Below, piece after piece: positions 15,001 through 18,000 of a DNA stretch of 64,000 nucleotides (position 1 is the stretch's first letter; every line of letters starts with the position of its first letter). Source of the DNA: Escherichia coli. Lineage in GTDB: Bacteria; Pseudomonadota; Gammaproteobacteria; Enterobacterales; Enterobacteriaceae. Made by a program: the position numbers. The stretch lies in assembly GCF_003018235.1 (NCBI RefSeq), contig NZ_CP027437.1; one strand, 5' to 3'.

Positions 15001-18000
15001 ATACTGCAACATTAACCATCAATGGCAGAATTAGTTCCCCTACATGCAGTATGGATGTTGTTAATAATCATCTTCAGCAACGTTGTGGGCAGTTGTTACA
15101 ACGAGTTGAAACCAACTATCGTGCTTCTTCTACTGCAAAAGGCGTTACGACAGAAGTGGTAGCTGTGGGTAATAACGACAAACGCAAAATCGTGTTAAAT
15201 CGCTACGATTAATTTGCCAACACCGTTTTAAGCATATTTAAAAAGCCAAAATCATTCCTATGAATGATTTTGGCTTTTTTATTCATCCCATAAATGTTAT
15301 TTACGGTAATTTACGGTAATTAATCAGTTTCAAAAATGTTTGTTATAGCGAATTATTTGTTGTATTTATATCGCATTAGTTAATTTGTTTTAAGTCAACA
15401 AAACAATATGTTTACATTGCGGCAACCTTTTTGATGTGAGAAATTTGTTTCCAAGAGATACAGACTCTTAACAAAACAAAATAAACTTATTAAGGAATGC
15501 ATCATGAAACATTCAATTATTGCTGTCGCTGTCTTATCTTCTGTATTTATGAGTGCTGGTATTTTCGCTGCTGAAGTAGATACCGGAACTTTAACCATTA
15601 AAGGTAATATTGCTGAATCACCATGTACATTTGTCGCTGGCGGTGATTCAGTCAGTATTAATATGCCGACTGTACCCACCACTGTATTTGATGGTAAAGC
15701 GAAATATTCAACTTATGATGGCGCGGTTGGTGTAACCAGCAGTATGCTGAAAATTACTTGTCCGAAGACTATTGATGGCGTAAAACTTTCGTTGATCACC
15801 AACGAGAAAATTCTTGGTAATGATAAGGCAATATCCAGTAGTAATGACACAGTTGGATACTATCTCTATTTGGGAGATAGCAGTGACGTACTGGATATTT
15901 CCGCACCATTTAATATTGAAAGTTATAAAACTGCTGATGGACAATATGCAATACCGTTTAAGGCAAAATATCTGAAGTTGACTGACAGTGGTGTTGCATC
16001 TGGTACTGTTAACTCTTCATTGGTTATGCGTGTTGCCCAGGATTAAATATTTAAAATAATCATCTTGTTTTTTCAGTAAGTTAAAATGGCCGCCATATTC
16101 ATGGCGGCCAGCATAAATATAAGAGGCATTAAGATGAAAGGGTTATTATCTTTACTCATCTCTTCTATGATATTCCCCGTGCATGCCGGAATGGTTATTT
16201 TCGGGACCCGTATCATTTACCCGGCAGAGCAGAAAGAGGTCATGGTACAACTGATGAATCAGGGAAACCGCTCTTCGCTGATGCAGGCGTGGATTGATGA
16301 TGGCGACACGTCTCTGCCGCCAGAAAAGATTCAGGTTCCTTTTATGTTAACGCCACCAGTAGTGAAAGTAGCGGCCAATTCTGGGCAACAAATAAAAATT
16401 AAAATCATGCCTAATAAATTACCCAGTAATAAGGAAAGTATTTTTTATCTTAATGTTCTGGATATTCCACCGAATAGCCAGAAGATGAAGGAAAGAATGC
16501 GTTAAAATTTGCCATGCAAAACAGAATCAAGTTGTTTTACCGACCTGCTGGTATTGCTCCGGTAAATAAAACGACTTTTAAAAAATTACGAGTGAGTCGT
16601 AGCGGTAATAACGTAGTCATAAAAAATGACTCGCCAAATTGGGTAACGATTTCTGATGTTAAGGCTAATAACGTCAAAGTGAATTATGAAACAATCATGA
16701 TTGCACCACATGAAAGTCAGAATGTTAGTGTAAAAAATAATAATGCGAATGGCTGGCAACTGACCATTATCGATGATCACGGCAACTATATTAGTGACAA
16801 AATTTAATTGCAGGAGCTGCCTATGTTGAGAATGACCCCGCTTGCATCAGCAATTGTCGCGTTATTGCTCGGCATTGAAGCACATGCAGCAGAAGAAACC
16901 TTTGACACCCATTTTATGATGGGAGGAATGAAAGGTGAGCAAGTAACAAATTTGCGTCTTGATGATAATCAGCCTTTACCTGGGCAGTACGACATTGATA
17001 TTTATGTCAATAAACAATGGCGTGGAAAATATGAGATTATCGTCAAAGATAACCCACATGAAACTTGCCTGACGCGTGAAATTGTAAAGCGGTTAGGTAT
17101 AAATAGCGATAATTTTGCACGCGAAAATCAGTGTTTAACATTTGAGCAACTTGTTCAGGGCGGAAGCTACTCCTGGGATATTGGGATTTTTCGTTTGGAT
17201 CTCGCTGTTCCGCAAGCCTGGGTTGAAGAGCTGGAAAATGGTTACGTTCCGCCAGAAAACTGGGAGCGGGGAATCAATGCGTTTTATACGTCTTATTACG
17301 TAAGTCAGTATTACAGTGACTATAAAGCCTCGGGAAATAGTAAGAGCACTTATGTGCGTTTTAACAGTGGGCTAAATTTGCTGGGATGGCAGCTGCATTC
17401 AGATGCCAGTTTTAACAAAACGGATAATAATCCTGGTGAGTGGAAAAGCAACACGCTGTATCTGGAGCATGGATTTTCTCAAATTCTCGGTACGCTGCGT
17501 ATTGGTGATATGTACACCTCAGCCGATATATTTGATTCCGTTCGCTTCACCGGGGTTCGGTTATTTCGTGATATGCAGATGTTGCCAAACTCGAAGCAAA
17601 ATTTTACCCCACGGGTACAGGGGATTGCCCAGAGTAACGCGTTGGTAACTATTGAACAGAACGGTTTTGTCGTTTATCAGAAAGAGGTTCCACCAGGTCC
17701 GTTTTCGATTAGTGATTTGCAGTTAGCGGGCGGAGGGGCGGATCTTGATGTTAGTGTTAAGGAAGCCGATGGTTCTGTGACTACGTATCTGGTGCCTTAT
17801 GCGGCAGTACCTAATATGCTGCAACCTGGTGTATCAAAATATGATTTTGCGGCAGGCCGTAGTCATATTGAAGGTGCGAGCAAGCAAAGTGATATTGTCC
17901 AGGCCGGTTATCAGTATGGTTTTAATAATTTATTGACGCTGTATGGCGGCACGATGGTTGCTAATAATTACTATGCCTTTACCCTCGGAACAGGTTGGAA

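Follow-up and report, generated by a model that had tools for sequence, protein, structure and literature searches.

The closest described counterparts of the locus considered here are the yehDCBA operons of Escherichia coli K-12 and of the EHEC O157:H7 strain 86-24. In K-12, yehDCBA is associated with H-NS in two genome-wide data sets (Kahramanoglou and Oshima, compiled in PMC5797941) and lies within a static, transcriptionally silent protein-occupancy domain (PMC12266141). The K-12 operon is poorly expressed (Korea et al., as cited by PMC5797941), and over-expression of SlyA, whose site is TTA-N6-TAA, raises its expression 3.6-fold (PMC5797941). In vivo binding of FNR at yehD has also been reported in K-12 (PMC2690998). 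In EHEC 86-24, the native promoter yields a single yeh transcript, CsrA binds the 5'UTR, and Yeh influences LEE and Shiga-toxin expression (PMC11287998). Our window, a 64-kb stretch of an E. coli O157:H7-type chromosome, carries the orthologous locus with a gene order identical to that of K-12 (metG-apbC-yehE-yehDCBA), in an allele that is divergent from K-12 (~80% identity over 14950 to ~18050). The initial annotation suggested an H-NS-silenced cryptic fimbrial promoter upstream of yehD. The H-NS association of the K-12 orthologue agrees with the first part of this description, but "cryptic" is too strong: because yeh of EHEC 86-24 is transcribed from its native promoter, the operon is not strictly cryptic in this lineage. 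Gonyar and Kendall reportedly described induction of yeh by ethanolamine in 2014.

The spacer between yehE and yehD is a 291-bp intergenic region, and both gene names given earlier are correct according to the annotation of matching E. coli genomes. Upstream of the spacer, yehE (14931-15212, plus strand; from our ORF list and the annotation of matching genomes) encodes a 93-aa protein of the DUF2574/YehE family, and PF10836 is present on every YehE homologue. On the other side, yehD (15504-16046, plus strand; from the ORF list), with its ATG at 15504, encodes the 180-aa major fimbrial subunit, which appears in matching genomes as the fimbrial protein WP_000682830.1. Farther along the operon, yehC of the window is frameshifted by an apparent 1-bp deletion within 16470-16485, which may be genuine or may be a homopolymer sequencing error. 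The region upstream of yehD is strongly AT-rich, as first noted, clearly exceeding the average of the genome; its GC content of 0.27 over 15200-15399 and of 0.265 over 15300-15499 compares with ~0.5 in the flanking metG and apbC. The yehE intrinsic terminator (15240-15283, plus strand), which the initial annotation took as the upstream limit of the control region, is real. It consists of a hairpin at 15240-15279 with 18-bp arms, the 3' arm of which runs into a T-run; the hairpin folds at -22.4 kcal/mol (z = -8.9 versus shuffles), shows compensatory changes in 4 of 15 consensus pairs among nine sequences from Escherichia and Citrobacter, and sits in a segment with a mean pairwise identity of 0.83. 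A permissive scan of 14600-16300 for structured RNA or an Rfam family returned sub-threshold hits only, nearly all of them over this hairpin, and this candidate was set aside. Sequence comparison indicates that the spacer is built of the terminator, then ~70 bp of freely evolving DNA holding the repeat, and then a conserved block of ~140 bp.

The tandem repeat described upstream of yehD is present and perfect, one base away from the position first given (15298-15320). Tandem Repeats Finder places ATTTACGGTA at 15299-15321 (plus strand), with a period of 10, 2.3 copies, and 100% matches; the unit reported earlier, tttacggtaa, is the same repeat in another register. The yehD ATG follows 183 to 205 bp downstream of the repeat, and no less than 95 bp separate the repeat from the best candidate -35 element, also downstream; neither a consensus scan nor a position-weight scan found a sigma-70-like promoter overlapping it. 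By eye, the repeat gives TTA-N7-TAA spacings only, not the TTA-N6-TAA of a SlyA site. It is the only perfect tandem with a period of 5 to 20 and a length of at least 23 nt in the 64-kb window, where dinucleotide shuffles predict 0.017 such tandems; among shuffles of the 291-bp intergenic region, 0.1% contain one. The repeat is thus beyond chance, and therefore a duplication event occurred, which does not by itself imply a function.

The number of units varies among strains from one to three. Among 370 complete genomes with this allele, ~360 carry two copies, eight carry three, and one carries a single copy, so that 9 of the 370 (2.4%) deviate from two; these nine make up the entire 90-95% identity band of the two-copy query, and of two records at 80-90% identity the survey covers one. 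Alignments show three copies in RIMD 0509939, 17MR471, and 33F4 and one copy in the O157 strain ATCC 43889 and in E. whittamii. At least three sequence backgrounds, with distinguishable flanking haplotypes, harbor the three-copy state: one is O157:H7 RIMD 0509939, another (17MR471) carries flanking SNPs plus a 7-bp duplication, and the third (33F4) has a private SNP in the terminator loop. Judged from these flanking haplotypes rather than from a whole-genome phylogeny, copy number appears to have changed independently several times. A second small tandem duplication, TTAAGCA x2, is found in this spacer in other strains. Forty genomes, spread across the 3,104 that match the imperfect repeat of K-12 type and sampled without going individually through the 86 genomes of the 90-95% identity band, gave spans of 111 to 112 bp throughout, with no copy-number change seen.

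We then compared the repeat with the remainder of the locus. A scan of species genomes with YehE returned six loci, all Escherichia, and the outgroups, reached via protein homologues, comprise Citrobacter and one Logan assembly, with Salmonella outside the set. Across seven Escherichia lineages, the repeat segment has a mean pairwise identity of 0.60 and the spacer beyond it one of 0.61, versus 0.70 for yehD synonymous sites (third codon positions of invariant residues in the same lineages) and 0.89 for the block at 15353-15494. Because the repeat segment falls below both the synonymous sites and the block, we see no sign of purifying selection on it, and the AT-rich distal spacer that holds it (15284-15352; identity 0.60 to 0.61 across the seven lineages) appears unconstrained. 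In the comparison with K-12, the 50-bp segment containing the repeat has 58% identity and shares the lowest value of the locus. Identity between units is 10/10 in O157, 8/10 in K-12, and 7/10 in E. albertii; elsewhere it is 6, 5, 4, 4, 3, and 3, against 3.0 by chance. In most lineages of E. coli and Escherichia the second unit has degenerated, although the two-unit organisation is still recognisable in several of them, and lineage-specific bases are common to both units (ACGG in O157, ACAT in K-12). The proposal that the decamer is a regulator-binding direct repeat consequently finds no comparative support, the repeat being located in the least conserved part of the spacer, variable from one to three copies, and degenerate in its second unit.

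The block at 15353-15494 (plus strand), which would comprise the promoter region and 5'UTR of yehD, is strongly conserved, reaching an identity of 0.96 in 20-column windows, and its core is kept in Citrobacter. Within it, we scored an FNR-like box, TTGTTTTAAGTCAA, at 15385-15398 against the FNR consensus TTGAT-N4-ATCAA. RIMD 0509939 departs from the consensus at a single position of the box, and five of the six scanned Escherichia lineages outside O157 have their one mismatch at that position too. Citrobacter shows two mismatches, as does the window, where 15394 bears an A>G change absent from the other aligned sequences of this allele; in E. albertii, no such box was found at two or fewer mismatches. 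The FNR binding observed in K-12 may be assigned to this box. The best candidate sigma-70 promoter (15417-15445, plus strand) lies in the most conserved columns, with a -35 TTGCGG, a 17-bp spacer, and a putative extended -10 (TGa-GAAATT). It is the top hit of the position-weight scan. Its score of 4.85, obtained with approximate hexamer frequencies, does not reach the best score that shuffled sequence gives on average in that scan (6.9), and the consensus scan found no sigma-70 promoter between 14842 and 15916; we therefore discarded a strong sigma-70 promoter in the spacer. Two further candidates in the block were dropped: an RNA fold at 15400-15515, with a weak consensus of -4 kcal/mol and no meaningful covariation among nine sequences, and a small upstream open reading frame of eight codons starting with ATG (15409-15435, seen by eye), the frame and length of which differ in K-12. 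As read from the sequence, a Shine-Dalgarno element, AAGGA, occupies 15492-15496 (plus strand), 7 nt before the ATG, and contains the only GGA near the start codon. In EHEC 86-24, the yeh 5'UTR is no longer gel-shifted by CsrA once a GG-to-CC change is made (PMC11287998), and the GGA of AAGGA is presumably the site of that mutation. The control elements of yehDCBA are thus likely to reside in this block, ~50 to 200 bases downstream of the repeat.

Based on these observations, we consider the repeat probably to be a small variable-number tandem repeat (VNTR) with no sequence-specific regulatory role, with the control elements of yehDCBA located downstream. Its units are head to tail and of high identity, whole-unit differences separate close relatives, and the changes recur in several backgrounds. 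We propose that slipped-strand mispairing could create and keep altering the decamer in an unconstrained, AT-rich, non-coding stretch just 3' of the yehE terminator and ~180 to 205 bp upstream of the yehD start codon. Repeated contraction and re-duplication would lead one to expect concerted yet decaying evolution of the units, as is seen. The repeat would at most contribute to a generic AT-rich surface coated by H-NS, and control of yehDCBA would be exerted from 15353-15494 through the FNR-like box, a weak activator-dependent promoter at ~15417-15445, and the CsrA-binding ribosome-binding-site region in the 5'UTR. The absence of a specific function is a suggestion drawn entirely from conservation, and the slippage mechanism and the placement of both promoter and FNR site are likewise our inferences. 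Two points weigh on the other side: the two-unit organisation retained in several lineages could stem from weak selection on a direct repeat instead of from recurrent slippage, and the repeat contains an exact CpxR consensus match.

This match, GTAAA-N5-GTAAA (GTAAATTACCGTAAA) on the minus strand at 15300-15314, agrees exactly, as a sequence match only, with the E. coli CpxR consensus GTAAA(N)4-8GTAAA as quoted in PMC9603713. It is the sole such match in the 64 kb, where 0.14 would be expected. On this basis, the repeat might be a functional site for CpxR~P or a related OmpR/PhoB-family regulator that couples Yeh fimbriae to envelope stress; recognition would be of direct repeats one helical turn apart, and each 10-bp unit gained or lost would mean one half-site more or less, with helical phase unchanged. 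The Cpx system is a regulator of other pilus operons and reacts to misfolded pilus subunits, which favors such a role, as does the presence of a perfect pentamer pair in E. albertii and of 9 of 10 matching positions in K-12. However, the match was recognised post hoc, a random tandem decamer of like composition yields the same one in 4.8% of cases, and 14 of 100 shuffles of the window contain at least one. Only the window-type allele and E. albertii have the pair intact, and the pentamers have degenerated in the majority of E. coli alleles and three other Escherichia lineages (ECO21, TTTAT/TCCAC; CUVET19-1704, TTTAC/TCTGC; E69, MOD1, and SCPM) and in Citrobacter, whereas one half-site is missing altogether from ATCC 43889 and E. 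whittamii. The segment evolves no slower than synonymous sites. Functional CpxR boxes usually lie within about 100 bp of the transcription start, and ~110 bp separate the center of this match from the best candidate -35 element downstream, itself a weak one. In the publications consulted that mention both yehD and CpxR, we found no link between them. We therefore regard a functional site of this kind as unlikely, and a genuine CpxR/OmpR-family operator linking Yeh to envelope stress specifically in the O157:H7-type allele as quite unlikely.

A structural contribution of the repeat seems similarly doubtful. AATTT tracts phased every 10 bp, a period of one helical turn, could introduce or enhance an intrinsic bend, or an H-NS nucleation patch, that helps to silence the yehD promoter downstream, with the number of copies tuning its strength; the 26-27% GC of the region would suit such a patch, as would the H-NS association and static silent domain of the K-12 operon (PMC5797941, PMC12266141). 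Two or three units nevertheless make a very short phased array, and AT-richness persists in lineages with a decayed repeat, so the repeat is not needed for it; moreover, the native yeh promoter is active in EHEC 86-24 (PMC11287998). The variation in copy number raises the further question of a contingency locus, in which slippage would switch yeh on and off through promoter geometry. Fimbrial operons are classic phase-variable loci, and copies vary from one to three in O157:H7 and related strains through several apparently independent changes. Such switching is nonetheless highly improbable: few of the genomes differ from two copies, the array is very short, and the repeat lies outside the conserved block and well upstream of the candidate -35 element instead of between promoter hexamers or in a coding sequence, and a 10-bp step keeps the same helical face.

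The decamer is a minor polymorphic duplication in spacer DNA that matters little, and the useful outcome is the map of the yehE-yehD spacer, which points to 15353-15494 as the part to focus on in dissecting yeh regulation in EHEC. Were the operator real, the one-, two-, and three-copy variants would differ in half-site number, and strains could differ in the stress response of yeh and, via yeh, of the LEE genes and those for Shiga toxin (PMC11287998). These natural variants are ready-made controls for the CpxR idea.

Among known systems, the decamer resembles the short VNTRs used in MLVA typing of E. coli O157:H7, in its perfect head-to-tail units within non-coding DNA, in a copy number (one, two, or three for the decamer) that varies between near-identical strains, and in the recurrence of changes; unlike them, its array is very short, and the low polymorphism (~2.4% of genomes) would make it a poor typing marker. 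With a CpxR box it shares the pentamer pair at 5-nt spacing, here on the minus strand and upstream of a chaperone-usher pilus operon, whereas orthologous spacers do not retain the pair, natural strains can do without one half-site, and the distance to the promoter is probably more than 100 bp. The locus as a whole resembles the H-NS-silenced "cryptic" chaperone-usher fimbrial promoters of K-12 (yeh, yad, elf/ycb, and sfm), being AT-rich both upstream of the operon and within it. Between the two described yeh operons themselves, that of K-12 is H-NS-associated and SlyA-responsive, whereas that of EHEC 86-24 is natively transcribed and CsrA-regulated (PMC5797941, PMC11287998).

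The window belongs to an O157:H7-type E. coli chromosome. The repeat lies in the spacer between yehE (14931-15212, plus strand) and yehD (15504-16046, plus); metG (11395-13437, minus) and apbC (13530-14669, plus) lie on the yehE side, and yehC (16134-16808), yehB, and yehA follow yehD on the plus strand. A sequence search with segment 14900-15600 returned matches in 5,410 of 5,426 complete E. coli genomes, only 305 of them at ≥99% identity. Among the matches listed, the best are mostly O157:H7-named or STEC-sized genomes; nearly all remaining genomes, K-12 included, are ~80% identical to this segment. 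Identity between the window and K-12 drops from 96-100% to 58-90% over ~14950-18050, so the lineage has a divergent allele covering yehE, yehD, yehC, and part of yehB, present in only ~370 of 5,426 complete genomes. The divergent part, yehE through the first half of yehB, is ~80% identical to K-12, and the flanking apbC/metG 96-100%; window YehE shares 99% identity with the Escherichia sp. E1V33 protein and 96% with its E. whittamii counterpart. Such identities point to either an old polymorphism at this locus or an exchange between Escherichia lineages. O157:H7 strain TR01 is mosaic, with yehE and its terminator of the window type and K-12-type sequence from just before the repeat on. Since the switch falls at window-equivalent ~15292-15298, the recombination breakpoint lies inside unconstrained spacer.

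The short tandem repeat described upstream of yehD in the initial annotation is real: Tandem Repeats Finder identifies 2.3 copies of ATTTACGGTA at 15299-15321 with 100% matches, the place originally indicated, although the positions were off by one base. The surrounding DNA is AT-rich, as described (GC 0.265-0.27 over 15200-15499). No other perfect tandem with a period of 5-20 and a length of at least 23 nt occurs in the window; dinucleotide shuffles predict 0.017 such repeats per 64 kb, and one appears in only 0.1% of shuffled versions of the 291-bp spacer. The one perfect tandem observed exceeds this expectation, and the decamer is therefore a duplication product, not a coincidence of bases. 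Its duplication origin carries no information on function. Other tandem repeats are found elsewhere in the window at 31792-31915 (9/27-bp array; 27 bp x4.6 copies, 98% matches), 33404-34680 (340-bp unit x3.8), 38079-38301 (51-bp unit x4.4), and 43432-43491 (perfect 28-bp unit x2.1).

Copy number was surveyed with the window's two-copy query, then with synthetic three-copy and one-copy queries. Nine of the 370 genomes with this allele fell in the 90-95% identity band of the two-copy query, and the synthetic queries account for all nine. Eight carry three copies (O157:H7 strains TB21-1, RIMD 0509939, HB6, and UTME-1; the related calf/farm strains 33F4, 32F4, and 33E; and 17MR471), and O157 ATCC 43889 carries a single copy. 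In alignments, decamers are gained and lost as whole units, and the three-copy state is found in at least three distinct flanking haplotypes: standard O157:H7 flanks in RIMD 0509939, flanking SNPs plus a separate 7-bp duplication in 17MR471, and a terminator-loop SNP private to 33F4. Two copies are present in the species representative Escherichia sp. E1V33, and one copy in that of E. whittamii. The 7-bp duplication (TTAAGCA x2, just past the yehE stop codon, window-equivalent ~15231-15237), carried by MLI023K1, UMNF18, and 17MR471, is another instance of small-scale slippage in this spacer.

We aligned the spacer across seven Escherichia lineages (the O157 window, E. whittamii, E. albertii, K-12, and the GTDB representatives E69, MOD1-EC7003, and SCPM-O-B-8794). 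Mean pairwise identity is 0.83 in the terminator hairpin, 0.60 in the repeat segment, 0.61 in the following 31 columns, and 0.89 in block 15353-15494 (maximum 0.96 in 20-column windows), compared with 0.70 at yehD third codon positions of invariant residues and 0.94 at first and second positions. At 0.60 versus 0.70, the repeat segment changes at a rate no lower than that of synonymous sites, and the 140 bp preceding the yehD ATG are constrained almost like protein-coding positions. The two-unit layout is still recognizable in K-12 (ATTTACATAA ATCTACATTA) and E. albertii (ATTTACAACA ATTTACGGTA), and unit-to-unit identity by lineage is 10, 8, 7, 6, 5, 4, 4, 3, and 3 of 10 (chance, 3.0). Lineage-specific bases are common to both units (ACGG in O157, ACAT in K-12). 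Together with the decaying unit identity, these shared bases form the pattern that would be expected of repeated contraction and re-duplication, a process still active because one-, two-, and three-copy states exist today.

The initial annotation had read the decamer as a regulator-binding direct repeat. Its minus strand, GTAAA-TTACC-GTAAA, does fit GTAAA(N)4-8GTAAA, which PMC9603713 quotes as the consensus for E. coli CpxR. It is the sole match in the window; 0.14 are expected, and at least one turns up in 14 of 100 shuffles. However, this resemblance was spotted after the fact, and the same match would arise in 4.8% of random tandem decamers with this composition. Moreover, most other alleles have degenerate pentamers (9 of 10 positions kept in K-12, TTTAT/TCCAC in ECO21, TTTAC/TCTGC in CUVET19-1704, and worse still in three further lineages and Citrobacter), and one half-site is dispensable in natural strains. 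Examined papers mentioning both yehD and CpxR contained no connection between the two. We therefore regard a CpxR site as improbable; the regulator-binding claim gains no support from conservation and persists as no more than a CpxR lead at the level of sequence. The best explanation, which we hold with reasonable confidence, is that the decamer is a mini-repeat probably generated by slippage within unconstrained spacer DNA: real and polymorphic, yet ordinary.

Within the region singled out by the initial annotation, the conserved block 15353-15494 is more informative than the repeat. The yehE terminator assumed upstream was borne out: its hairpin (15240-15279) folds at -22.4 kcal/mol (z = -8.9 versus shuffles), has compensatory changes at 4 of 15 consensus pairs across Escherichia and Citrobacter, and is directly followed by a T-run. 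Control of yehD is most likely seated in the block, which holds three candidate elements; its conservation is not explained by an Rfam family or a covariation-supported RNA fold, both of which were looked for. The FNR consensus is TTGAT-N4-ATCAA, and an FNR-like box, TTGTTTTAAGTCAA, occupies 15385-15398. It has one mismatch in RIMD 0509939 and in five of six non-O157 Escherichia lineages scanned, and two in Citrobacter and the window; in E. albertii the scan gave nothing even with two mismatches allowed. The window owes its second mismatch to an A>G change at 15394, absent from other aligned sequences of this allele. This G, in the ATCAA half, is the only difference between the window and its best match (99.9% identity over 14900-15600), and the A is also found in other aligned lineages, E. 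albertii excepted. FNR is reported to bind at yehD in vivo in K-12 (PMC2690998), and we tentatively attribute this binding to the putative box. The best sigma-70 candidate in the spacer (15417-15445; TTGCGG, 17 bp, TGa-GAAATT) is weak, scoring 4.85 versus a mean best of 6.9 in shuffled sequence, and scanning the spacer for consensus promoters gave no hit. Such weakness is in keeping with a poorly expressed operon that depends on an activator. If transcription starts at ~15453, the box would be centered at ~-61.5, a standard activator position, though that figure only combines the coordinates of two inferred sites and carries no evidential weight. The third element is the Shine-Dalgarno AAGGA (15492-15496) in the yehD 5'UTR; in EHEC 86-24, CsrA binds the yeh 5'UTR and requires a GG pair (PMC11287998).

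The general picture of H-NS silencing is supported by AT-richness and the K-12 literature, in which yehDCBA is H-NS-associated in two genome-wide data sets, is up 3.6-fold with SlyA overexpression (PMC5797941), and lies within a static protein-occupancy domain (PMC12266141). None of this evidence singles out the repeat. The description "cryptic" does not suit this pathotype: in EHEC 86-24 a native promoter drives the yeh locus as one transcript, and yeh affects LEE expression (PMC11287998). Downstream, yehC carries a 1-bp deletion at 16477 (CCC to CC; frameshift after ~codon 115) that is absent from all 377 complete E. coli genomes carrying the allele; the best matches around it are all 98.8% identical over an 82-base span. 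The deletion is a pseudogenization private to the strain or else a homopolymer sequencing error. Between yehD and yehC, a GC-rich hairpin with a 10-bp stem (TGGCCGCCAT...ATGGCGGCCA, 16087-16110) scored as terminator-like for the minus strand. Read in the plus direction, the hairpin could serve as an attenuator or stabilizer behind the gene for the major subunit, an arrangement known from other fimbrial operons.
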